Shown here piece after piece: positions 10,272 to 52,556 of a DNA stretch of 64,000 bases. Source of the DNA: a virus. Lineage: Duplodnaviria > Caudoviricetes. A program made the position numbers and the translations under genes. Position 1 is the first letter of the stretch. Every line of letters begins with the position of its first letter. The notes under the pieces are model-generated. The model was given only the letters and a program-made list of their open reading frames with translations, searched no databases and was not told the origin of the DNA. The stretch is taken from positions 11,861 to 75,860 of IMG/VR virus record IMGVR_UViG_3300002179_000002. One strand, given 5' to 3'.

Positions 10272-12200
10272 ATGTCAACAAAAGTTCGCTTCGGCAATAA
10301 AATAGTTCAACTTCCAGGCACCTACTCTAGAATAGTAGCAGGACAGAATAATCCTCCTAGAGATTTAGATTATGGTAAGTTATTGATTATAGATAATCAA
10401 AACCTTAATGCGTCTCTTGCAAATAATGGCATGTTAGGCGGTGCTGGTATTGCTGGTACGCTTGTTTCAGGTAAGAATGCAGTTTACTCAGTAAAAGATA
10501 TTCAAGCATTTAGAGACTTTGTTGGTGCTGGTTGGTGGTATAAAGCCGCTGAAGGATTGTTTAATCCCGATGGCAACAATAATGGTGTATCCGAAATATT
10601 CATAGTTAAACCCGCCACTACAACCCCTGCTTTATTATCATTCATTCCTACTGGAGGTGGAGCGGCTGGTGGTACATTCAAAGTCAAAACAAAAGATGAA
10701 GGTACAGCAGCTAACGGTAATCCTGATGAGACAAGAGCAACTTCTACAGTGACAGTAACTGCTGCTGGATCAACTGCTGATAAAATCACAATTAAAGTAT
10801 CTGGAGTAACAGTAGCTGAATATACCAATGCTTCAAGTGATAGCATAGCAACTATGGTTGCAGGACTTGCTGCTAATATGACGTTATTGGGAATATGTTT
10901 AGTAGTATCTTCTACTTCTCCTGCATTAGCATTCAAAGCACCTGTTGGATATGGAGCAACAACAGTAACTCCTACAGTAACAGTAACAGGCGGTGCAACA
11001 GGTTCTGCAGTAGCATTTGCAGGTGGAGTAACAGCAACTAACCTTTTATCAGGTTATGCTTATAAGATTGAGACAGGTGTAGTTGATACAGCAAAATGGA
11101 TTTTCAAGATTTGGAGAGGTAATTATAAAGGTTTATATTCAGACAATATTCCTTATGATGAAATCACTTCAGCTAATTCAAGACCTACATTAGTAGCACA
11201 GTCACCAGAGTTCAATAATGTTCAGACATTGATTGATTGGGCTTTGACTGACAGTACATTTGGTAAATTATTTGTATTGGATGCCACTTCTGCTAAGACA
11301 GGTGCAGGAACAGTTACTTCAGCTGACATAACAGCTAACACTGGTTATAGGGTTGCTTCTACAGGTACTGCAACTTATGATTCTATTGATGATGCATTAG
11401 ACGCAATTAAAGACTTAAATTATAGTGCAATATTAACTACTTGTTCAACAGCTAACCCTTCAACTGATACTACTATTCTTAAGATAGTTGATCATATTGA
11501 AAACGAAGCTAAGTTCGACAAACATCTCTATATAGCAGGTGATGATAATGATGTTGATACTTCTGTTGGTTATGCTGAAACATTTGACTCAGAGAAAGTC
11601 ATATTGGTTCATGGTGCTATTCAAAAAGTAAGCAGATTAGCTGCTAGTGGCTTTAGAGTTTGGGAACAGTTCTTTCATACAGCCTATAATGTAGGTAGGG
11701 TATTAGGATTAGCTCCACAAGTACCTTTGACATTCAAATCACTTGATATTGATGGTTTAGTATCTCCACTGAATGTTAAAGACCAAGAGAAAGCTGATGC
11801 AGCAGGTGTATTGGTAACAGTATTTGATGAGGACTTTGGTAAGTTCATCAACCTACACGATGTAAACACATTACAGGATAGTGATTTTGTATTAACAAAT
11901 GCAGGTACTTCACACCTTATTCAGATAGAACGTATCAAAGCTCAGTTGAACAAGGAACTTATCATCAATGCTAAACTTGACCTGATGTCTGATCCTAACG
12001 GTGTCAATCGTTCTTCATTAACCGAAGAGGATGCTATTGAATGGACTAAAGGCTATTTAGGTCGTAAAATGGGAACCCTGATTGTAGCTTGGAGAAATGT
12101 TACTGCAACTACTTCTGGTGACTTCCTATTTGTAACTTATGAGGCATCTCCTAATACTGAGATTAAAGGTGTTTTCTTCACTGGTGGACTTTACATATAA
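10272..12200 (+). CDS. Contractile tail sheath protein
   Basis: 642 aa; LPGTYS N-terminus, PLTFKSL and DVNTLQ sheath motifs; followed by the tube gene. Confidence 0.9.
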   Translation: MSTKVRFGNKIVQLPGTYSRIVAGQNNPPRDLDYGKLLIIDNQNLNASLANNGMLGGAGIAGTLVSGKNAVYSVKDIQAFRDFVGAGWWYKAAEGLFNPDGNNNGVSEIFIVKPATTTPALLSFIPTGGGAAGGTFKVKTKDEGTAANGNPDETRATSTVTVTAAGSTADKITIKVSGVTVAEYTNASSDSIATMVAGLAANMTLLGICLVVSSTSPALAFKAPVGYGATTVTPTVTVTGGATGSAVAFAGGVTATNLLSGYAYKIETGVVDTAKWIFKIWRGNYKGLYSDNIPYDEITSANSRPTLVAQSPEFNNVQTLIDWALTDSTFGKLFVLDATSAKTGAGTVTSADITANTGYRVASTGTATYDSIDDALDAIKDLNYSAILTTCSTANPSTDTTILKIVDHIENEAKFDKHLYIAGDDNDVDTSVGYAETFDSEKVILVHGAIQKVSRLAASGFRVWEQFFHTAYNVGRVLGLAPQVPLTFKSLDIDGLVSPLNVKDQEKADAAGVLVTVFDEDFGKFINLHDVNTLQDSDFVLTNAGTSHLIQIERIKAQLNKELIINAKLDLMSDPNGVNRSSLTEEDAIEWTKGYLGRKMGTLIVAWRNVTATTSGDFLFVTYEASPNTEIKGVFFTGGLYI

Positions 12201-39796: not shown

Positions 39797-41308
39797 ATGG
39801 AAGATATTTTTAAATCGATTCAAGAGGGTATTAATTTACAGAGAGAGTGGATCGCGAAGTCGTTTACGATCAATATTGATATCGAAAAGGGAAAGAAGTC
39901 TCCTATTGGAGCTATTCACGTTAATAAACAAGGAACTTGGGTCAAAGTATCTGATACTGGTAATGGTCACAAGGATTGGGTTTTGGAGAAAAAAGTTAAG
40001 TCTGAATCTAAAATCGAAGAGAAGGAAGAGTGTTCAAAATCAGAATTAAAATCAGAGAAAATTAAAATGAATGAGAGTTTCCCGAAAAATTTTAATATTG
40101 CTAGGGAGAATCTGACGACATCAGAAATGTTTCAAAAAACATCAAAAGGAAAATTTAAAGATCAAAATGAACTATATGATAAATTAGGAGGCAAAGAGAA
40201 TTTAGAGAAAAAATTAAAAAGTTTTATTAATGACAGTGCCGTTTATATGGCTATTAAGAGTGGAACGCTTATTAGAGAGATTATTAATAAATCAGACGCA
40301 TTTAAAAATAGTCTTGAAACGGGAAAAGGGTCTTTTAAAACGATTGGAGAAGAGAGAACGCTGAAAGAGAAGTTTATTTTTGGCATAGATACAGAAGCTA
40401 ATTCAAGCGAAGCAGATAATTTTCCAAAATACGGATTTATTTCTTCAAAAGAAGAGATGAGTTATGAACCTATCTCCGAAGGAAATTATGGAAATGCATA
40501 TGTAAAATTTAAGACATCTGCTGTCAAAGATAGAACTAGTATTACTTTGGGAGATTCGTTCAATGATAATGGTTCTATCTCGTATAAAGGTCAAATAGAT
40601 TTAACTTCTGTAGCGCCCCCTACTAAATTAAATGATGTAGATGATAAACTCATTTGGGGCATTAATAATAATGATCCTAACTCAGATATGTGGAATAAAA
40701 TAAATGAAGCTAAAAATATTGATGAATTTACAGAAGCATCTGTTTCTTCATATATGGAAGCTCAAATATATGGGAAGCTGTCTATAGATGATGTTGATAG
40801 CATTTTTGTAAGTTCTATAAAGGAAGCAGATTCTTTTAACGCAGCGTTGAAAAAGGCAGGTAGAGAAATAAAAGTTTTGCCTTGTAAATTTGATAATAGA
40901 TTAAACAATCTTGTGGGTGGTTATCATAGAGGGGATGGTCCTAGATATCGCGCTTCATTAAATCCAAGTGATATTGATAATCTTGGCGATTATTACATAG
41001 ATATATTAGCTAATAAATGGCTTGCTGAGTCAGAAGTTGAAGTTAAGCATAATGCATTACCCTCTGGACTAGTTTTACTTGCTAAAAAATATAATCAGTT
41101 TACTAAAGATGAGCAAGGTCGTAAGGTAAGAATTCATTCAGATATAAGTATGGAAGACAAAAGAAATTGGCTTAAGAAATTCTACGAACTAATGTCTAAT
41201 GGAGATGATGGAGGAATGCCTTTCTTTTGGCGTGAAGATTATAGAAAAACAATAGGAGGATTCACTGATGATGTGATGAATAAGAAACTATTGATAAAAT
41301 ATAAATAA
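39797..41308 (+). CDS. Leader-bearing DUF3626-like protein (possible ADP-ribosyltransferase fold), putative packaged effector
   Basis: FKNSLETG...PKYG...YG...KDRTSITLGDS...YMEAQIYG; leader and module shared with ORFs 22025 and 42152. Confidence 0.65.
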   Translation: MEDIFKSIQEGINLQREWIAKSFTINIDIEKGKKSPIGAIHVNKQGTWVKVSDTGNGHKDWVLEKKVKSESKIEEKEECSKSELKSEKIKMNESFPKNFNIARENLTTSEMFQKTSKGKFKDQNELYDKLGGKENLEKKLKSFINDSAVYMAIKSGTLIREIINKSDAFKNSLETGKGSFKTIGEERTLKEKFIFGIDTEANSSEADNFPKYGFISSKEEMSYEPISEGNYGNAYVKFKTSAVKDRTSITLGDSFNDNGSISYKGQIDLTSVAPPTKLNDVDDKLIWGINNNDPNSDMWNKINEAKNIDEFTEASVSSYMEAQIYGKLSIDDVDSIFVSSIKEADSFNAALKKAGREIKVLPCKFDNRLNNLVGGYHRGDGPRYRASLNPSDIDNLGDYYIDILANKWLAESEVEVKHNALPSGLVLLAKKYNQFTKDEQGRKVRIHSDISMEDKRNWLKKFYELMSNGDDGGMPFFWREDYRKTIGGFTDDVMNKKLLIKYK

Positions 41309-43639: not shown

Positions 43640-44476
43640 ATGAGAACTGACAGAGAATTGAGAAACATGACCACCATCCAGTTGGGGAAAGAAGCAACAC
43701 TATTAGGAATAACAAAAACAGGAATAATGGATAAAGTTAAATTAATCGAGAAGATCAAAGTAGCTCAGGCTGCAACGCCAGCATCTGATGAATACACTGA
43801 TCGCAACAGCGATATCATCGCAGCAGATGACAGGGCAAATTTCAGGGTAGGGGGCAAGTGGTTCCCTGGCACAATTACAAAATTCAAATCAATCGAGGAC
43901 GACCAGTATGCGTATGCTCTGCTGGACGGAAGCGAAAAAGTAAAGATGTTCCACACTATGGACGTCGAATTGGACAAGAACGCAAAATCTAAAAGCAATA
44001 TGAAGAAGAAAGAAGTTCCTCAGGAGCAAGTTGAGGAAGTAAAGAAAGAATCAAAGAAGGCAGTGCTCGCTGAGCTCCTTGAGCAGCCATCAGTTGAAGA
44101 ACAGGAAGTAGAACAGGTAGAAGAGCAAGAAGTTGCCCCTATTGAAGTAAAAACATCTACTCGTACCTCGCTGCCTCCAGCATCCATGAAGATCGCAAAA
44201 GCAGACGCTCCAGTCATCAAGACGAAAGAGGCTGATAAGAACATTGCCAAAGACAAGAAAGCTCCTGCAGCATCGTCAGATGACATGCTTGCATGTATTT
44301 TCGCCAAGGGCGATGATGTGACATTCACATCTGCCAAGAACTCCAAGCTGGCTTCTAATCAGGAGCTGAAGGGCAAAGTTGTATCTGTCAAGACTGATAA
44401 GGGCAAGTACTGGCTGTCCATCAAAGTAGAGGGCTTGGGACACTTCATGAAAGAGGCATCTAAATGCCAGAAGTAA
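43640..44476 (+). CDS. Hypothetical protein (Rho-N/HeH-like N-terminus, two SH3-like domains, acidic linker)
   Basis: MTTIQLGKEATLLGI...KVKLIEKI; two beta-barrel-like segments. Confidence 0.6.
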   Translation: MRTDRELRNMTTIQLGKEATLLGITKTGIMDKVKLIEKIKVAQAATPASDEYTDRNSDIIAADDRANFRVGGKWFPGTITKFKSIEDDQYAYALLDGSEKVKMFHTMDVELDKNAKSKSNMKKKEVPQEQVEEVKKESKKAVLAELLEQPSVEEQEVEQVEEQEVAPIEVKTSTRTSLPPASMKIAKADAPVIKTKEADKNIAKDKKAPAASSDDMLACIFAKGDDVTFTSAKNSKLASNQELKGKVVSVKTDKGKYWLSIKVEGLGHFMKEASKCQK

Positions 44477-44781
44477 ATCAGATCACGGTGACTCCTGACT
44501 CATCCAAACTGGGCCAGGAGTTCCTAGATGCTCTCGATAGAGTGCTCATCACCAGAGCAGATAGAGCAGATCAGTATGGAGACACCTATCTCGGAGACGA
44601 CTATATGTTCCTCTACTATCAGGTGCTCAACAAGATGAAGCGATTCAAGCTCCAGATGAGCATGGAGAGCGGACAAGAGCAGATAATCAACAGAGAGGTG
44701 GCTCTGGACTCAGCCATCGATTGCGCAAACTATGCAATATTCATAATAGCAAAGATTCTGAAAGATGAGAGTGAGAGATAA
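44464..44781 (+). CDS. Nucleotide-modification-associated domain protein (DUF1599/NMAD-like)
   Basis: RADQYGD...KMKR...DSAIDCANYAIF. Confidence 0.7.
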   Translation: MPEVNQITVTPDSSKLGQEFLDALDRVLITRADRADQYGDTYLGDDYMFLYYQVLNKMKRFKLQMSMESGQEQIINREVALDSAIDCANYAIFIIAKILKDESER

Positions 44782-46006
44782 CTATATCCTCGGCGCAGGC
44801 ATAAGCGGCCTAATATACGCTTACTACAACAGAGATTTCACGATCATATCCCCAGATATCGGGGGCAAGCTCAACAACAAATTCTTCGAGAACATATTCT
44901 ACCTACACGCCACTCCATTCACCGAGAGGCTGCTCGAGGACCTCAAGCTCCCAATAGTAAAGAAGACGCAGCTCATAAAATATGTCAAGTCTGACAAGAT
45001 ATTGACAAAGCTCACGATAGAGGACAAGAAGAAGTTCATATCGAAGAAGCTCAACGACCCTGAGTTCGACGCTAAAGACCTCTCGCTCAGCACCAGCGAC
45101 AACTTCATCTCAGTCTTCGAAGTATCGTTCCAGGACATCCTATCCAGACTGAGAGAGGGAGTAGAGGTCATAAATGAGACGGTCATCAAGATAACTGAGA
45201 CAGAGATCATCACTCACGACACTCGATACAAATATGACAAGCTGGTCTCGACTATCAGCGCCAGAGCATTCTGGGGCATGTACTACCAGCAGAGGACCGA
45301 GGAGCTGAAATCTGAGACGATAACCTTCCTATTGTGCGATAAGCTACCTGATTGCCTCTCGAAAGAGAAGTTCGACCTCGCTTATTTTGTGGACGCAGAT
45401 GTCAAGTACACCAGAATATCAAAGCGTAGGAGGGACCAGTCTGACGCATTCCTATATGAGTTCTCAGGGAGGCTATCTCAAGAGGACTGCGTAGAGCATC
45501 TCCCTACTGGAGCAGCAGTGTTGGACTTCTATCACGAGATCGATGGACTCATATTCTCTGACAGCAATAACATACCTCCTAACAGAGTGGAGTTTGTGGG
45601 CAGGTTCGCCACTTGGGACCACTCATTCAAGCAGCAGGATGTCATTGAGAAGGCTCTATCATCATTCGATATGTCCAACATCTGGAACATGCAGAAGAGA
45701 TTCACTTCCAATTTCGTGGACTTCAACAGCCTGACCGAGACTCATCAGAGGGAATCGCTCACGAAGGACTACTTCACAGCCATGATCATAGAGCTATCCG
45801 AAGTGATGAATGAGATTAACTACAAGCAGCACAAGCCGAAGAAGACGGTGGACATAGATCTATTATCCGAAGAGCTCATAGATGCGTTCAAGTACTTCGT
45901 CAACATCTGCCTGATGTGGGACATAACTCCCCAGAAGTTCATTGAGTTATTCGAGATGAAATCAAAGAAAGTCACAGAGAGATATGAGAAACAAAAACAG
46001 CAGTAA
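44765..46006 (+). CDS. FAD-dependent oxidoreductase (UDP-galactopyranose mutase/HemY-like) fused to an all-alpha dUTPase/dCTPase domain
   Basis: ILGAGISGL, YDKLVSTI and GRFATW; C-terminal ELSEVMNEINYKQH...EELIDAFKY. Confidence 0.8.
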   Translation: MRVRDNYILGAGISGLIYAYYNRDFTIISPDIGGKLNNKFFENIFYLHATPFTERLLEDLKLPIVKKTQLIKYVKSDKILTKLTIEDKKKFISKKLNDPEFDAKDLSLSTSDNFISVFEVSFQDILSRLREGVEVINETVIKITETEIITHDTRYKYDKLVSTISARAFWGMYYQQRTEELKSETITFLLCDKLPDCLSKEKFDLAYFVDADVKYTRISKRRRDQSDAFLYEFSGRLSQEDCVEHLPTGAAVLDFYHEIDGLIFSDSNNIPPNRVEFVGRFATWDHSFKQQDVIEKALSSFDMSNIWNMQKRFTSNFVDFNSLTETHQRESLTKDYFTAMIIELSEVMNEINYKQHKPKKTVDIDLLSEELIDAFKYFVNICLMWDITPQKFIELFEMKSKKVTERYEKQKQQ

Positions 46007-46008
46007 AA

Positions 46009-46893
46009 ATGAAAATAGAGAAGATAAAGAGAATGTTTGAGATTAAACAAGGAGAGATACCGAAGACTAAGTTCATCGACAACCTATCTGCAGTCCAAGT
46101 GGACATGATCGACTGGCCAGATCCAGAGAGATTGAAACGAGTATTCGTGAACATGAGCCAGGCATCTTGGTTTGAGAACTTCTACGACAATGCTACTCCA
46201 GAAGACAGGGACGAAGTGGTCAATGACCTATTCTCGGGAAAGATACTCGGCCAGGGCATGGAGCACCCTCAGTTCTGCTTCATAGTCAAGGGACTCTCCC
46301 TGCACGGAACGCACGCCCTAGTCAGGAACAGGATAGGCATAGCATACATGCAGCAGTCACAGGCTGTGAAGGATTTTAGGCACTCAGATGTGCTTGTCCC
46401 GAGGGCATTCACCAAGCTACCCGACATGCTCAAACGATACGAAGAATGGGTCCAACAGGGAAAGAGGCTGTACGCCGACATGCTCGACTCTGGAGAGATA
46501 GCAAACACTGACGCAAGGTTCTGCCTCCCTAAGACGATACCTTCTTGGATATACGTAGCAGTCGCTCTGCCCACCCTACTGTCGATCTATGGCAAGCGTA
46601 CCGACTCCCAAGAGGAGCACCCAGAGATGAATGCCATGGCTGAGCAGATGAGGAATCTGATAGTAGATAAATTCCCATACATGGCGTCCTATTTCGTGTC
46701 GCACGATGACAATGGCAAGTGCCTGCATCTTAGAAAGGGGTACGCCGCAAACTGCATCTTCAAACGAGATGAGGATCACGCTATCGAGGGATATACAGAT
46801 GAGTGGACATTACACGATAAGACTAAGCAGGAGCTCATGCTCGACTGCGAGAAGTATAAGGGCTCATACTACATAGGAGGTGATAAGATATGA
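46009..46893 (+). CDS. Divergent ThyX-like flavoprotein
   Basis: MEH..F.F..KG, THALVRNRIGIAYMQQS and DARFCLP; the canonical RHRxxSxxxxSxR motif is altered. Confidence 0.75.
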   Translation: MKIEKIKRMFEIKQGEIPKTKFIDNLSAVQVDMIDWPDPERLKRVFVNMSQASWFENFYDNATPEDRDEVVNDLFSGKILGQGMEHPQFCFIVKGLSLHGTHALVRNRIGIAYMQQSQAVKDFRHSDVLVPRAFTKLPDMLKRYEEWVQQGKRLYADMLDSGEIANTDARFCLPKTIPSWIYVAVALPTLLSIYGKRTDSQEEHPEMNAMAEQMRNLIVDKFPYMASYFVSHDDNGKCLHLRKGYAANCIFKRDEDHAIEGYTDEWTLHDKTKQELMLDCEKYKGSYYIGGDKI

Positions 46894-47747
46894 TGATACA
46901 AGACATATACAGGCGCGAGCCATGGAAGATGCTCGTCTGCTGCATCCTGCTCAACCAGACTACTGGAGTGCAAGTCAAGAAGATGATGAGAGAGTTCTTC
47001 AGGACGTTTCCTACTCTCAATGACTTAAGGGACATAGATGAGAATACTCTGGCAGGAGAGATTGAGAGTTTGGGGATGCAGAATGTGAAGGCAAAGAGAA
47101 TAAAAGCTTTCGTAGCATCTTTCACTGAAGATGTAGATGTTATGAAGGACTCAGTCATAGGGTATCCTGGACTAGGGAGCTATGCTTGCGAATCAGCAGA
47201 TGTCTTCATATGCAGGAATAATGATGTCAAGCCAGAAGACAAAGAGATCTCATCCTATCTCTCAAAGATTGAGACGGGAGATGTGTTCGTAGAGGGAATG
47301 AGAAAGTATCTAGAATTATGCGGAGTCGAGAGAGTCACTGTTGGTTGTAGAGTCAAAGAGATACTGAACCACTCGTATCATTTCTTCTCCAACGTATTCT
47401 GGCGCATCACAGATGATAGACTTCCCTATGTGAAGGATAAGTTGATCATGTATAGAACTGCTCTAAGAGACGCCATAAAGCGACTTGAGAGAGACAATAC
47501 GAGTCGACAGGCGATCATTCAGTTCGATCAGAGCGATCCATTGCCAAACTGCACAGTATCTATTCAGTTCCAGATCAAAGACGACATCCTATTCACCACA
47601 GTCTACCAGAGGTCTCAGGACATTGATAAAGTGGAGATGGACTGCGAGATATTCGCTCTCATGTCTCTCGAAGTCATAAAAGCTATTGAGGGCGTTGATG
47701 ATTATCGAGTTGCAGTATTTGTTGGAAACTTTCATCTATATCTATAG
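46890..47747 (+). CDS. MBD4-like HhH-GPD DNA glycosylase fused to a thymidylate synthase/dCMP hydroxymethylase-like domain
   Basis: PWKMLVCCILLNQT...PGLGSYA..S..VF....VKPED; C-terminal SRQAI...PNCT..IQF...YQRSQD...GNFHLY. Confidence 0.8.
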   Translation: MMIQDIYRREPWKMLVCCILLNQTTGVQVKKMMREFFRTFPTLNDLRDIDENTLAGEIESLGMQNVKAKRIKAFVASFTEDVDVMKDSVIGYPGLGSYACESADVFICRNNDVKPEDKEISSYLSKIETGDVFVEGMRKYLELCGVERVTVGCRVKEILNHSYHFFSNVFWRITDDRLPYVKDKLIMYRTALRDAIKRLERDNTSRQAIIQFDQSDPLPNCTVSIQFQIKDDILFTTVYQRSQDIDKVEMDCEIFALMSLEVIKAIEGVDDYRVAVFVGNFHLYL

Positions 47748-47748
47748 G

Positions 47749-50700
47749 ATGGAGAAACTGATAAGACATCTAGAGGACAACAAGCTGGACTATGAGACTC
47801 TCGAGATCAAGAGCAAGTTCAAGATAGCAGATCAGACTTTCGAGTTCATCTGGCCAGACTCCACTGGCAGGCTATTCGATGATGACCTGCATCTACAAGC
47901 AGATGATACAGACTGCGACAATTATGCATTTAGATTCGGTGGGGACTACTACTACATAAACAAAGCAGACAAGGATAAACCGACATTCAAAGAGCTCAGA
48001 TATATTGGCCAGTCGAAGAGAGAGATAGAGACTGATGCTTTTCTTGGAGTCAGAGGGGCGTATGAGATACTCAATGGCTCTAGAATCTATGAGGACTGGT
48101 GCGCTAAAGCAAAGTTCTTGGGAGTCAAATCTCTCGGCATCATAGAGAAGAACACATTGGCTGGAGCTCTCAAGTTTCAGATTGAGTGCAAGAACCTCGA
48201 TATCAAGCCGATACTTGGAGCGACTTACACTGTCGTCAGGAAGGGCGAAGATTACAAGCAGGATATCAAGTGCTTCGCAAAGTCAGAGACTGGCTGGACC
48301 AACCTACTGATGATCAACAAAGAGGTCAATGTCATCAACAACAAGTTCATATACGAGGATAGGTTCATAGAGCTCTTGGAGGATGTGATAGTGATCGTAG
48401 ATCCAAAGAGTGGATCATATGATAAATTGGGCAGGATGAGGAGCTACATGAAGTACTATCAGCTGGATACTGTCATATATAATGATCAGTCCAAAGATCA
48501 GGAGTATCTTCTGAATCTAAAGGCGTTTGTCAGAGATGGCAGCCTGAAGCCGATATTCATATGCGATGCATTCTACCTAGATAGGGATCACAGCCACATA
48601 AAGAAGACGCTGAATGGGATATCTGGAGTCAGGGAGTATGAGTCATCCAACCAGTATTTCAAAGACGCCGATGACTATCTGGCAGAGTTAGAGCTGTTAT
48701 TCTCTACAGAGGATGAGTCGTTCTACGATATAGCATCAAAAGCCATCAAGAATGCCAACACACTGTCTGAGATCTGCAACTTCCAGATCGATACAGAGCA
48801 CTTCTATCTGCCTGACTATGTACTAACAGAGGAGCAGTTAACGAAGTATAAGGATAAGATAGACCTATTCTGGGGCCTCATAGGCGAGGGGATGGATGAG
48901 AAATGCTCGGACGAGGACAGAGAGAAATATCTGGACAGGATTGAGATAGAGTATTCAGTCATCATGAAGGGCCAGAATCTGATTGATTACTTCCTCATCC
49001 TATGGGATATCATAGACTGGTGCGGCAAACAGAACATATTAGTCGGATATGGCCGAGGATCATCTGCTGGAAGTCTCATCGCATACCTATTGGGGATAAC
49101 CAACATCGATCCATTCGAGTACGACCTCCTGTTCGAGAGGTTCTTGAATGAGAATAGGGTCAAGAAATCAATCCCTGACATTGACTCAGACTTTGAGGGA
49201 CTGAGAAGGGATGAGGTAAAGCACTATATGGAGCAGAGATTCGGATACGATCAGGTGTGCTCTGTAGGGACATACGGCAACCTGAAACTGAAGATGATAT
49301 TCACAGACCTTGCAAAACGTAGCAACATTCCTATTCAGGAGGTCAAGATGATGACAAGCATACTCGGAGAGGGAGAGAAGGACGGCACCGATTGGTCTGA
49401 GATATTCCATCTTGCATCTAAGTCTCAGAAACTGAAGGACTTTGTGATGCGCAATCCAGACATAGTTCACGACGCTAAATTGTGTCTGATGCAGCCTAGA
49501 TCTGGATCAGTCCATGCATGCGCCACCATCATCACTCCAGCAGACAAGGACATCTATCACTGGTTCCCAGTCAAGAAGGTCCTATCTAAAGATGGAGAGG
49601 AGCTGCTCGTCAGCGAGTGGGAGGGCATTCAGCTGGACAAAGCAGGATTCTTAAAAGAAGATATATTAGGTATTCAACAATTGGATAAGTTCGCCAGCTG
49701 CATAAAGCTCATAGAGGAGAACAAGGGGATAAAGATCGACTTCAAGAAGATACCATTAGATGACGATGCTGTATATAGGTACTTTGGAAAGGGGTGGAAC
49801 TCTGATGTGTTCCAGTTCGGGACTCAGGGACTGAAGAAATATACTAAAGAATTGAAGCCTGATTCGATGGAAGAGCTCAGCGCAACCAATGCATTATATC
49901 GTCCTGGCGCCATGAAATCTAATGCTCACAATGACTTTGTGATGATTAAATGGGGTATGAAAGAGCCTGAATACGACTATATGCTTGAAAGTGTGACTAA
50001 AAAGACTTACGGTCTATATATCTACCAAGAACAGACAATGAGGGCTGCTCAGGTACTTGGCGGATTCACTTTAGTTGAGGCAGACATGATGAGAAAAGTG
50101 ATGCTTGGCAGGGGAAAGAAACAGTTTAGAGATCAGTTCTATATCTATCATGATAAATTTGTTTTGGGAGCTGTAGCAAATGGATGCGAAGCAAGTGTTG
50201 CAGAAAAGATCTGGGATAAGCTAGAAGCGTTTGCGGGTTACGGGTTTAATGCCAGCCATGCGGCTGCCTATGCGATAACTGGGTATATTAGTCAGTGGTT
50301 TAAGGTCAATCACCCAATCGAATTCTGGACTACAGCATTCAAGTTTGCTAAAGATGAATTGGTAGCTGATTTCATATCTGAGATCCATGCCACTGGAGCC
50401 ATAAAGATATCTCCACCAGACATAAATGAGTCGCTGTTCGATATGACTTCGAACTTCAAGAAGAACACCATCTACTGGGCGCTCACGAGCATCAAGTCAG
50501 TCGGTGGAGTTGCTGCTGAGCAGATCATGAAAGATAGGGATGAGAATGGACCATATTTCAGCTTCGAGGAGTTCCTGAGCAGGCACACTTTCAAGGGCAG
50601 CAAGGTCAACAAGACTCATGTAGAGAATCTCATATTCTCAGGTGCATTCGACAAGGTCGAGGAGATAGAGGACTCTCTCAAGCGCAAGCGACTGATAGAC

Positions 50701-51189
50701 TTCTACCGGACTGAGAAGAAGACTAAGATAGATGCCGAGAAGGATCTCATGACGCTGAGCGAGAAGGACATCTCCGATGACTGGTGGTGGGACCTCAGGC
50801 AGAAGAGGCTGACTGGCATAGCATTCTTCGACTACAAGACTATGTGCGACAAGTATCTGACAGATGGAAAGTATCTCGATCAGGATGAGTGGCAGTCAGA
50901 GTCGCTAAGTAACATCTACTACTCGATAGGCGGCTACATAGTAGAGGTGATTGAGCGGACATCCAAGAAGAGTGGCAAATACTGCTCGATCAGGATTGAG
51001 AGCAACTACACATTCATCTGGGTGTCTATATTTCCCTGCCAGTATCAGCAGCTCACAAAATCTGGCATCGAGCTGATAGGACAGGAGGGCAACATCCTAC
51101 TGCTCACAGGGATGATCAAACTCGACACCTACAAGAAAGAGAACGCATGCAAGTTCTGGGACAACAGCGAATTAGTAATCTTAAAATAA
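47749..51189 (+). CDS. dnaE: DNA polymerase III alpha subunit (start corrected to ATG 47749)
   Basis: GYGRGSSAGSL, LLFERFLN, PDIDSDF, KEDILG, LYRPG and YGFNASHAAAY motifs; PHP domain. Confidence 0.95.
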   Translation: MEKLIRHLEDNKLDYETLEIKSKFKIADQTFEFIWPDSTGRLFDDDLHLQADDTDCDNYAFRFGGDYYYINKADKDKPTFKELRYIGQSKREIETDAFLGVRGAYEILNGSRIYEDWCAKAKFLGVKSLGIIEKNTLAGALKFQIECKNLDIKPILGATYTVVRKGEDYKQDIKCFAKSETGWTNLLMINKEVNVINNKFIYEDRFIELLEDVIVIVDPKSGSYDKLGRMRSYMKYYQLDTVIYNDQSKDQEYLLNLKAFVRDGSLKPIFICDAFYLDRDHSHIKKTLNGISGVREYESSNQYFKDADDYLAELELLFSTEDESFYDIASKAIKNANTLSEICNFQIDTEHFYLPDYVLTEEQLTKYKDKIDLFWGLIGEGMDEKCSDEDREKYLDRIEIEYSVIMKGQNLIDYFLILWDIIDWCGKQNILVGYGRGSSAGSLIAYLLGITNIDPFEYDLLFERFLNENRVKKSIPDIDSDFEGLRRDEVKHYMEQRFGYDQVCSVGTYGNLKLKMIFTDLAKRSNIPIQEVKMMTSILGEGEKDGTDWSEIFHLASKSQKLKDFVMRNPDIVHDAKLCLMQPRSGSVHACATIITPADKDIYHWFPVKKVLSKDGEELLVSEWEGIQLDKAGFLKEDILGIQQLDKFASCIKLIEENKGIKIDFKKIPLDDDAVYRYFGKGWNSDVFQFGTQGLKKYTKELKPDSMEELSATNALYRPGAMKSNAHNDFVMIKWGMKEPEYDYMLESVTKKTYGLYIYQEQTMRAAQVLGGFTLVEADMMRKVMLGRGKKQFRDQFYIYHDKFVLGAVANGCEASVAEKIWDKLEAFAGYGFNASHAAAYAITGYISQWFKVNHPIEFWTTAFKFAKDELVADFISEIHATGAIKISPPDINESLFDMTSNFKKNTIYWALTSIKSVGGVAAEQIMKDRDENGPYFSFEEFLSRHTFKGSKVNKTHVENLIFSGAFDKVEEIEDSLKRKRLIDFYRTEKKTKIDAEKDLMTLSEKDISDDWWWDLRQKRLTGIAFFDYKTMCDKYLTDGKYLDQDEWQSESLSNIYYSIGGYIVEVIERTSKKSGKYCSIRIESNYTFIWVSIFPCQYQQLTKSGIELIGQEGNILLLTGMIKLDTYKKENACKFWDNSELVILK

Positions 51190-51193
51190 ATAT

Positions 51194-51517
51194 ATGACAA
51201 ATCAAGAATTTCTAACCTATCACCAAGAGTGTTTAGATAAACTCAAATCTATCGTGGCGTCCAAGAATCACGACTATGCTGGCTTCAGCAAGGACGACTG
51301 TTTCGCCAATTTCAAGCTGGTCGAGAATATCGGTATAGCGTCCGCAGAACAGGGCTTCCTGACTCGGATGATGGATAAGGTGTCTCGAGTCAATTCGTTC
51401 GTCCAGCAGGGCGTGCTTAACGTAGCAGACGAGAAGATCGAGGACACATTGTTGGACCTCGCAAACTACTCGATATTGATGGCTGGCTATATCAAATCAA
51501 AGAAAGAGGGAATATGA
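51194..51517 (+). CDS. Nucleotide-modification-associated domain protein (DUF1599-like)
   Basis: KNHDYA...FANF...RMMDKVSR...EDTLLDLANYSIL. Confidence 0.8.
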   Translation: MTNQEFLTYHQECLDKLKSIVASKNHDYAGFSKDDCFANFKLVENIGIASAEQGFLTRMMDKVSRVNSFVQQGVLNVADEKIEDTLLDLANYSILMAGYIKSKKEGI

Positions 51518-51843
51518 AGATCTATCTAGCAATACCCTATAGTGGCTTCGAAGAGGAGAGCTTCTCAGTAGCCAATAAGATCGCAGCAGAACTCATGCTA
51601 GAGGGTCACATCGTCTTCTCTCCCATCTCGCACACTCATCCCATTGCTTTATCGGGAGATCTTCCCAAAGGATGGCAGTACTGGAAGACTTTCGATGAAT
51701 CATTTATCGAGTGGTGCGACCAATTGGCCGTAGTCATAATGAAGAATCAGGGCGAGGAGAGAGTTAGAAATAGTCAAGGAATTGCTGGAGAATTGACTCT
51801 AGCAGATGTTTATAATAAACCAATCTACTACATAAAAGAATGA
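51514..51843 (+). CDS. DUF1937 / nucleoside 2-deoxyribosyltransferase-like protein
   Basis: IYLAIPYS...VFSPISHTHPI...WCD...SQG...E. Confidence 0.75.
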   Translation: MKIYLAIPYSGFEEESFSVANKIAAELMLEGHIVFSPISHTHPIALSGDLPKGWQYWKTFDESFIEWCDQLAVVIMKNQGEERVRNSQGIAGELTLADVYNKPIYYIKE

Positions 51844-52556
51844 GACTAATAAAACCATATTTCGAGATCATCACTCCTATTAATGGAGAACAGATTCTGA
51901 ATCAAATTGAACTAGCAGCAAGAACCTGTTATAAGTCAGAAGATAGAATAGCTCCTGGTTCTGCTGAAAAACTTATCAAGAATGTTTTAATGGCTAGAGG
52001 ACATAATGCCATGCTTGAATTCGGTGGAATGATTACAGTCAAATTTGTCTGCGACAGAGGCGTATCACATGAATTAGTTCGGCATAGATTAGCTTCTTTT
52101 GCTCAAGAAAGCACAAGATTCTGCAATTATACAGATGATAAGTTCAGTAATGGGGAAGTTACTTTTATCATTCCATGTTGGCTAAATATTCCAGAAGGAC
52201 AATATGTCTGGTGGGATGGCGACTATTGCGACGTATCAAAAATGGAGATAATGGTGTCAAATGAACAAATGAAAGAAGACACTAAGCTTAATTCATTTTT
52301 AGTTGCATTAGATCAATGTGAAAGTTCTTATAAAATGATGGTTAATACTGGCTGGACTCCTCAGCAGGCTAGAGCAGTATTACCTAACTCTCTAAAGACT
52401 GAGATTAATATGTCAGCCAATATCCGGGAGTGGAGAGAAATATTCAGACAAAGAACTGCCAACGCTGCTCATCCACAGATGCAAGAACTGATGAGACCTC
52501 TATTGAAAGAGTTCCAGAATAGAATCTCTATCTTATTTGACGATATAACTTATTAA
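51840..52556 (+). CDS. thyX: FAD-dependent thymidylate synthase
   Basis: Canonical HELVRHRLASFAQESTR, ARAVLP and AHPQM motifs. Confidence 0.95.
   Translation: MRLIKPYFEIITPINGEQILNQIELAARTCYKSEDRIAPGSAEKLIKNVLMARGHNAMLEFGGMITVKFVCDRGVSHELVRHRLASFAQESTRFCNYTDDKFSNGEVTFIIPCWLNIPEGQYVWWDGDYCDVSKMEIMVSNEQMKEDTKLNSFLVALDQCESSYKMMVNTGWTPQQARAVLPNSLKTEINMSANIREWREIFRQRTANAAHPQMQELMRPLLKEFQNRISILFDDITY

Follow-up and report, generated by a model that had tools for sequence, protein, structure and literature searches.

Why would a phage join an MBD4-like DNA glycosylase to a thymidylate-synthase (TS) fold within a single polypeptide, and what would such a protein contribute to phage DNA? The question is raised by one gene (46890..47747, + strand; 285 aa plus stop) in a 64,000-nucleotide stretch of phage DNA, referred to here as the window, which spans positions 11,861 to 75,860 of the 75.9-kb IMG/VR virus record IMGVR_UViG_3300002179_000002, rated 69% complete. 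A first-pass annotation, made from the sequence alone, had read the gene as an MBD4-like mismatch glycosylase fused to a minimal TS fold, and had proposed that a cytosine-modifying domain is physically tied to the repair of its own deaminated product. Pfam searches, phmmer searches of the PDB and superpositions of an AlphaFold2 model of the whole protein (pLDDT 92.4, pTM 0.89) confirmed that the open reading frame is real and contains two confident domains. We conclude that this two-domain phage enzyme is real and conserved; judged from alignments and the model, its two active sites look intact, and both the fusion and its gene neighbours are conserved. A Shine-Dalgarno-like AGGAGG lies 7-8 nt upstream of the start, the ATG shares bases with the stop codon of the gene before it (ATGA), and the stop of the fusion gene (TAG) is located 1 nt before the ATG of dnaE. 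Because of this overlap and the 1-nt gap, we consider the fusion gene to be one cistron of a tightly coupled operon.

Residues 1-127 (46890..47270, + strand) were assigned to the MBD4-type monofunctional HhH-GPD DNA glycosylases by Pfam, by phmmer against the PDB and by predicted structure. Pfam HhH-GPD (PF00730) covers residues 16-109 (E 2.4e-10; 41.1 bits against a cut-off of 26.2), and the top phmmer match in the PDB is the MBD4 glycosylase domain 4ew4 (E 7.5e-10, residues 2-123). The 16 best distinct PDB sequences are all MBD4 domains, except for an archaeal G-T mismatch glycosylase at rank 11, with EndoIII and MutY ranking far behind. Superposition of model residues 1-134 on MBD4 gave a Z of 17.6 and an rmsd of 2.4 Å over 128 residues, in agreement with the fold claimed for this half. 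The likeness to mouse and human MBD4 (4ew4, 4evv, 3iho) extends over 128 of 138 residues at 24-26% identity and, as in MBD4, the domain has no Fe-S cluster motif. Unlike MBD4, the phage protein is viral, is fused to a TS fold and has no methyl-CpG-binding domain.

The MBD4 motifs recognized at the N-terminus in the first-pass annotation aligned as described, including V.PED on the catalytic Asp of MBD4. Residue roles were taken from the available part of the study by Hashimoto et al. 2012 on mouse MBD4 (PMC3458566) and mapped onto the phage protein through the phmmer alignment to 4ew4. According to that part of the study, Gln423 hydrogen-bonds to O2 and N3-H of the flipped-out thymine, Tyr514 reads O2 (Y514F nearly abolishes activity), Asp534 is catalytic (D534N is dead), Asn441 acts in the minor groove, Leu482 serves as the wedge, and Arg442 is the finger that fills the gap left by the flipped base; the hydrogen-bond pattern limits substrates to thymine- or uracil-type bases and shuts out cytosines, and the fastest substrate is G:U (PMC3458566). 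In the phage protein, Gln423 corresponds to Q4 (codon 46899..46901, + strand), Tyr514 to Y98 (codon 47181-47183, + strand) and Asp534 to D117 (codon 47238..47240, + strand), while Asn441 is N22, Leu482 is M63 and Arg442 is Q23. MBD4 and the phage protein therefore share the catalytic Asp, the T/U-reading Gln and Tyr, the minor-groove Asn and a Leu/Met wedge, but not the Arg finger. The position of D117 is Asp in 17/18 and in 11/12 relatives in two alignments, and the mapped functional residues are kept in 11/12 divergent fusion proteins. At the finger position, the query and the rest of its clade have Gln, whereas 5 of the 12 aligned members have Arg and one has Lys; Gln at this spot is usual in EndoIII and MutY. 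Because the base-reading residues of MBD4, and with them its hydrogen-bond pattern, are kept, we infer that the glycosylase half probably acts on uracil-type bases opposite G (U, T or a 5-substituted U), flipping them out and excising them.

Residues 128-285 (47271..47744, + strand) form, according to Pfam, the model and structural comparison, a minimal TS fold consisting of a sheet core and three helices, hereafter mini-TS. Pfam Thymidylat_synt (PF00303) aligns residues 192-284 with model positions 112-211 of 266 (E 1.5e-5), at a score barely above the curated cut-off (24.8 versus 24.3 bits). Superposition recovered the claimed TS fold in this half as well, placing residues 128-285 on TS-fold enzymes with Z 15-16.1 and an rmsd of 2.2-2.5 Å over ~157 residues, which cover the span 1-262 of the 316-residue L. 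casei TS. In the secondary structure of the model, the N-terminal helix, the first hairpin, one long helix and three more sheet strands are kept, together with the helix following the RS.D motif and the last strand, which ends in HLY. The central sheet, which forms the dimer interface of TS, is also retained; this sheet and the equivalent of Arg126' suggest that mini-TS is a homodimer with shared active sites.

The middle folate-contacting segment had been noted as apparently missing. It is indeed absent, and the description had to be extended, as the whole C-terminal ~55 residues of TS are also gone. We take the absent parts to be ~58 residues from the middle of E. coli TS (with E58, W80 and W83) and ~55 residues after His207. 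The protein ends one residue after HLY, and its relatives all end 1-24 residues past the His. A truncated TS or pseudogene was considered and ruled out, since all 22 relatives share the short length and stop right after the His, and the catalytic residues are invariant. With neither the folate-contacting segments nor the C-terminal lid in place, classical folate-dependent synthesis, or chemistry of the T4 gp42 kind, is impossible as such. Taken together, the alignments and the model identify mini-TS as a minimal (~155-165 aa), previously undescribed branch of the ThyA/dCMP-hydroxymethylase fold.

The conservation of the active site was assessed in a 23-sequence alignment of the mini-TS domain with its free-standing relatives (A2; numbering is that of the whole protein). 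R206, P219, C221, R241, S242, D251 and H282 are invariant in 23/23 sequences, free-standing and fused alike, and R206, Q207, N220, C221, Q240, R241, S242, D244, K247, D251, N280 and H282 are identical in 22/22 close members. SRQ, PNC, RS.D and the His of HLY had been singled out from the start, and all are retained, being invariant in 22/22 family members. When compared with the PDB, the A2 profile matched TS (E 5.5e-10), AfhB (4.6e-8), E. coli TS (5.7e-8) and T4 dCMP hydroxymethylase (4.7e-7); it places the Cys on the TS nucleophile and RS.D on Arg166, Ser167 and Asp169, while the invariant Asp is matched, ungapped, to the PFN Asn of TS, which is equivalent to Asn177. The codon of C221, which aligns with the TS nucleophile Cys146 and is invariant in both sets (22/22 and 23/23), lies at 47550..47552 (+ strand), and that of D251, which alignment and profile place on the Asn177 (T4 gp42 Asp179) specificity column, at 47640..47642 (+ strand). 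The original placement of the Asp of VEMD in this column thus holds at the level of the family (23/23), and the one-residue gap allowed for it was appropriate, the query being one residue shorter between D244 and D251. The phosphate ligands R241, S242 and R206 are kept, the equivalent of R206 being supplied by the partner subunit in TS; H282 corresponds to the His that holds the 3'-OH in TS, and D244 is the D169 equivalent. The equivalent of TS Arg127' is Gln (Q207), and that of Arg21 is not conserved.

In the part of Lee et al. 2026 that was available (PMC13326640), an Asp at N177 makes the enzyme prefer dCMP, Asp or Glu at L143 accompanies hydroxymethyl-type products, and Asn at D169 marks the flavin-dependent 5-hydroxy-dCMP synthases, all those tested. 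The mini-TS family carries Asp, Leu and Asp at the N177, L143 and D169 positions (D251, L218 and D244 in the query); the L143 position is hydrophobic (L/F/I/M) in 22/22 members and the D169 position is Asp in 22/22. Read in this way, mini-TS looks cytosine-specific, yet it fits neither known cytosine-type branch. With T4 gp42 (1b49, 1b5d) and the CMP hydroxymethylase MilA (5b6e), it shares the TS fold, the Cys nucleophile and an Asp at Asn177; however, those enzymes are full-size (246 and 318+ aa) and folate-dependent, with Asp or Glu at L143, whereas mini-TS has ~157 aa and a Leu. With the 5-hydroxy-dCMP synthases (HY126 AfhB, 9iqu and 9iqc; RB69 gp48; DLP3 gp80), it shares a shortened, non-folate TS fold and an Asp at N177. 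By contrast, these synthases carry D169N, where mini-TS has Asp, and AfhB, which comprises 217-234 aa and binds flavin itself, is ~60 residues longer than mini-TS.

The same fusion occurs elsewhere, recurring in ~25 metagenomic proteins. A word-indexed search retrieved 17 full-length homologues (46-59% identity, 258-299 aa) and 4 free-standing C-terminal halves of ~160 aa, and an exhaustive phmmer search gave 949 matches at E up to 0.001. Of the best 150 of these 949, 121 match the glycosylase half only, 19 are free-standing mini-TS proteins of 89-170 aa, 9 are fusions (including a truncated one) and 1 joins mini-TS to a different partner. In the metagenomic protein P0151 (346 aa), an N-terminal mini-TS with all catalytic residues is followed by a C-terminal domain of the uracil-DNA glycosylase (UDG) superfamily (Pfam PF03167, E 9.5e-15; family-4 UDG 4zbx, E 1.8e-6), in which the first motif reads GINPS and Cys residues are clustered. 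By sequence, mini-TS is joined to two structurally unrelated uracil-type DNA glycosylases, one of the MBD4 type and one, in a single protein, of the UDG type. Searches for longer proteins with the C-terminal domain and with the A2 profile gave MBD4 fusions and, besides these, nothing but TS homologues of ordinary length (P0172-P0174).

The fusion was also looked for in cultured phages and in genome collections. A tblastn search of 50,697 phage records gave partial single-domain matches only, with 80% query coverage in 0/6 records, and megablast of the 44-52 kb region against phage records gave no match. No two-domain match was found in BFVD (best TMq 0.47), and no fusion was found in GTDB species genomes. 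The IMG/VR search yielded one locus (L002), and IMG/VR scans with two sub-alignments of free-standing mini-TS (A4 and A5) and with P0151 found nothing. In BFVD, two small uncharacterised viral proteins, A0A3G1L3Q7 of Synechococcus phage S-CBWM1 (151 aa) and W8CQ29 (174 aa), show a weak structural likeness to the model (E 0.033 and 0.0098, respectively; TMt 0.52-0.53), and might represent mini-TS proteins that stand alone in cultured phages.

Two flavoenzyme genes precede the fusion gene. The nearer one (46009..46893, + strand) encodes an altered ThyX paralogue in which RNR and QQSQA replace RHR and QES.R, and which carries a Cys/His C-terminal extension of ~65 residues with conserved C238, H240, C249 and H257. 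It matches Thy1 at E 8.7e-23, below the NCBIfam equivalog cut-off, and is 55-74% identical across three aligned mini-TS loci (L002, L004 and L005); its matches in the 50,697 phage records do not exceed 28% identity. The farther one (44765..46006, + strand) encodes a 413-aa protein in which an amine-oxidase/protoporphyrinogen-oxidase-like flavoprotein is fused to an all-alpha nucleoside triphosphate (NTP) pyrophosphatase of the dUTPase_2/MazG-like kind. The flavoprotein part occupies the first 300 residues (Atlas structure, TM 0.79-0.85), the C-terminus matches dUTPase_2 (E 4.8e-6) and phrog_173, and a search of the 50,697 phage records with the flavoprotein-pyrophosphatase gave no match. Free-standing viral homologues of the flavoprotein part, of ~300 aa and with no function assigned, occur in several Atlas clusters. 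Both genes adjoin mini-TS in 4/4 related mini-TS loci (L002, L003, L004 and L005); L006 was excluded from this count, as it holds an ordinary-length TS homologue.

Based on these observations, we tentatively favour, at a little under even chances, a composite reading in which mini-TS makes a C5-altered dCMP for phage DNA and the fused glycosylase removes its deaminated form opposite G. The NTP pyrophosphatase fused to the flavoprotein would supply dCMP from dCTP, as T4 gp56 does. A mini-TS dimer would bind dCMP or another cytosine mononucleotide, Asp251 would protonate N3 and Cys221 would add to C6, after which the activated C5 would react with a partner-supplied electrophile or cofactor. Because mini-TS has no folate site of its own, the C5 partner would have to be supplied differently, and its likeliest source would be the syntenic flavoenzymes, namely the altered ThyX and the amine-oxidase-like flavoprotein. 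The C5-altered dCMP would enter phage DNA, and the glycosylase half would remove the deamination product of the altered base (or of C) opposite G, in the manner of Vsr beside Dcm. Dcm is a cytosine-5 methyltransferase that acts on DNA with S-adenosylmethionine, Vsr is a T:G mismatch endonuclease, and their genes overlap. The parallel, a C5 modifier paired with a remover of the deamination product, is a functional analogy only, as the folds are unrelated, an endonuclease takes the place of a glycosylase, and overlapping genes take the place of one polypeptide.

The initial proposal of modification coupled to repair therefore survived in part. Functional coupling of the two activities gained support, since mini-TS has been independently fused to an unrelated UDG-fold glycosylase in P0151, whereas T4 gp42-like chemistry is not possible as such in a domain that lacks the folate segments and the lid. 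Modification of cytosine by mini-TS, followed by repair of its deamination product, is plausible.

Several observations weigh against the composite reading. Mini-TS lacks all folate-contacting segments as well as the general acid/base residues of TS, so that C5 transfer may stay incomplete, and the marks of both known cytosine-type TS branches fail at L218 and D244. In the glycosylase half, the Arg finger of MBD4 is replaced by Gln (Q23). For the UDG fusion there is only one sequence, P0151, from one 22-kb contig, and it needs confirmation for this reason. Three fusion proteins (P0027, P0029 and P0042) have lost TS residues R206, R241, S242 and H282 with every glycosylase residue kept, and P0029 and P0042 have also lost the TS Cys; conversely, P0018/P0175 have lost glycosylase residues G62, G96, Y98 and D117 with every mini-TS residue kept. 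In terms of lineages, TS residues are lost and the glycosylase kept in 3/12 aligned fusion lineages, and the reverse is seen in one. Such one-sided decay in divergent lineages indicates that the fusion can persist with one dead half, and that writing plus repair cannot be the whole story. In L005 the module includes a mini-TS that stands alone, and the 19.9 kb of this locus contain no MBD4-like domain, which makes mini-TS, and not the glycosylase, the constant member of the module. Among the 37 Pfam-screened open reading frames of the window, taken from a record that is 69% complete, no dNMP kinase, dCMP deaminase or DNA glycosyltransferase was found. Finally, all 4-mer palindromes are under-represented, A/T-only ones included (observed versus expected: CTAG, 70 versus 195; GGCC, 28 versus 65; GATC, 240 versus 323), which is weak evidence that the phage DNA is not broadly restriction-proof.

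A more specific version, which we regard as unlikely though well worth stating, holds that mini-TS is a folate-independent activator of C5. Cys221 and Asp251 would form the C6 adduct of dCMP, the lid-less site would expose the C5 carbanion to an electrophile made by one of the neighbouring flavoenzymes (the altered ThyX or the amine-oxidase-like protein), the product would be an undescribed cytosine modification, and the glycosylase would act as a built-in proof-reader. If this were true, the protein would be a single-polypeptide 'write and repair' enzyme, invented twice, once with the MBD4 fold and once with the UDG fold.

A rather improbable alternative is that the glycosylase is the sole enzyme and mini-TS is non-catalytic, serving either as a dimerisation scaffold through the TS sheet or as a regulator that senses dCMP or dNMP. 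Such a role would be in keeping with P0027, P0029 and P0042, where glycosylase residues outlast TS residues, with the loss of the folate site and the lid, and with the pTM of 0.89, which suggests rigid packing of the two halves in the model. However, the catalytic set is identical in 22/22 close members and 23/23 mini-TS sequences, at least 19 free-standing mini-TS proteins have no glycosylase to regulate, P0018/P0175 pair an intact mini-TS with a decayed glycosylase, and the C-terminal half is conserved like the N-terminal half among relatives (47-61% versus 37-61%).

The structural comparisons raise another alternative, which we consider quite improbable, namely that mini-TS is a flavin- and O2-dependent 5-hydroxy-dCMP synthase of the AfhB/RB69 gp48 kind, with flavin provided by the neighbouring flavoproteins; in that case 5-hydroxycytosine, perhaps in glycosylated form, would be present in the DNA, and 5-hydroxyuracil opposite G would be the target of the glycosylase. 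The dCMP hydroxylase AfhB of phage HY126 is the structure closest to the C-terminal domain (9iqu, Z 16.1, rmsd 2.2 Å over 157 residues), and its complex with dCMP and FAD follows closely (9iqc, Z 15.5), but an ordinary TS practically ties with them (Z 15.6) and the ~60 AfhB residues beyond the mini-TS core are absent. The Asp at the N177 position and the two adjacent flavoenzyme genes would also suit such a synthase, as would the NAD-dependent sugar epimerase/dehydratase gene directly downstream of mini-TS in L005; no glycosyltransferase, however, is found among the screened open reading frames of the window. Of the residue marks described in the available part of Lee et al. 2026, D169N is absent (D244 in 22/22) and so is L143E (L218) (PMC13326640).

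Equally hard to credit is a mini-TS that works without any cofactor through the Cys-C6 adduct, either converting dCMP to dUMP to feed phage ThyX or removing or exchanging a C5 group, with the glycosylase handling uracil in DNA. What survives in mini-TS is only what adduct formation needs: the nucleophilic Cys, the Asp that would protonate N3, and the residues that bind phosphate and sugar. Cys adducts of the C5-methyltransferase type promote cytosine deamination. The 37 screened open reading frames include no zinc dCMP deaminase, a canonical ThyX and an NTP pyrophosphatase belong to the same operon, and the genome is AT-rich (GC 0.36), all of which would fit. On the other hand, we know of no TS-fold deaminase. 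Such a reaction would explain neither the link to the altered ThyX nor the invariance of the D169 equivalent, a residue that contacts the pterin in TS.

We know of no TS-fold enzyme that acts on polymers, and the remaining alternative, in which both halves act on DNA, with a lid-less mini-TS deaminating or modifying a flipped cytosine and the glycosylase processing the product, either as a host-DNA-wrecking 'deaminate and excise' device or as a polymer-level modification like that of the aGPT-Pplases, seems to us very improbable, because mini-TS keeps the ligands of a free mononucleotide (the 3'-OH His, and Arg and Ser on the 5'-phosphate), free-standing mini-TS proteins exist, and no aGPT-Pplase family is listed among Pfam matches at E up to 1 (in itself no proof of absence), even though both independent fusion partners are DNA enzymes, the loss of the lid leaves the active site open in the model, G:U is the fastest substrate of MBD4 in the available part of its study (PMC3458566), and HhH glycosylase-like folds with C5 chemistry on DNA have a precedent in the available part of the aGPT-Pplase report (PMC8989533). 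That same part of the report describes the aGPT-Pplases, from thymidine-hypermodifying phages, as an HhH glycosylase-like fold within a phage pyrimidine C5 pathway, which is the point of likeness, but as enzymes that act on 5-phosphomethyl-dU in DNA with no base excision (PMC8989533). The phage fusion, by contrast, matches MBD4 (E 7.5e-10) with the catalytic Asp kept.

Each half of the protein belongs to a known superfamily. Which restriction, CRISPR and glycosylase defences are effective against a phage depends on the modified bases in its DNA, and such modifications are a source of enzymes for biotechnology. To our knowledge, the known pre-replicative pyrimidine modifications all start from a full-size TS homologue that uses folate or, as described in 2025-26, flavin. 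If active, the ~157-aa core, with its nucleotide clamp, Cys and cytosine-type Asp, would be the smallest known TS-fold enzyme, and it would point to a third way of performing C5 chemistry. Its fusion to two unrelated uracil-type glycosylases suggests a dedicated repair of deamination products in altered-cytosine phages, which has not been described before, and the fusion protein itself is small and soluble-looking. A search of the literature, whose coverage did not extend to the 2013 survey of phage DNA modification by Iyer et al., found no description of the ~157-aa TS core as a family, of its MBD4- or UDG-type fusions, or of its fixed association with the altered ThyX.

The large open reading frames of the window all lie on one strand and include baseplate, terminase, DnaB-like helicase, RecA and DnaE genes. 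Upstream of the flavoprotein-pyrophosphatase gene is a small conserved open reading frame of 105 aa (44464..44781, + strand) with no Pfam match, which is also found upstream in L002, L004 and L005; in L004, a radical SAM/SPASM gene (L004:6798-7706) is inserted between the two. Downstream of the fusion gene, the DNA polymerase III alpha gene, dnaE (47749..51189, + strand), is followed by a group of genes at 51194..52556 (+ strand). Between dnaE and thyX (51194-51843), this group encodes DUF1599 (nucleotide modification associated domain 1, E 1.3e-5) and DUF1937 (E 5.4e-12) proteins, the latter also with a weaker match to nucleoside 2-deoxyribosyltransferase, and it ends with the canonical ThyX at 51840-52556 (E 3.3e-37). 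In L003, a DUF1937-like open reading frame follows the fusion gene. In L005, the sugar epimerase/dehydratase gene is located at L005:10198-11391 (Pfam E 1.7e-47), and a 187-aa open reading frame upstream of mini-TS (L005:9349-9912) was considered as a candidate glycosylase and rejected. The C-terminal end of the latter is weakly like the first half of mini-TS (hhalign probability 11%), and it is possibly a remnant of a mini-TS duplication.

The base composition of the window is uneven. The block at 44000-52000, which contains the nucleotide-metabolism genes and dnaE, has a GC content of 0.44-0.46, compared with 0.30-0.38 in most other parts of the window and 0.36 in the genome overall; other carriers of the module range from 0.37 to 0.54. 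Origin from a GC-richer phage, or a distinct codon regime, could account for this block. Over the whole record (the window plus 11.8 kb upstream), the observed/expected ratio of CpG is 0.50 (0.27-0.67 in 8-kb windows) and that of TpG/CpA is 1.13. CpG depletion was considered as a footprint of deamination and dropped: in the other carriers of the module (L002-L005) the CpG ratio is 1.06-1.59, indicating that the depletion is specific to the lineage or host and not tied to the module. Elsewhere in the window, a 503-aa protein at 39797-41308 shows a sub-threshold match to DUF3626 (E 2.8e-5; 23.7 bits versus a cut-off of 27).

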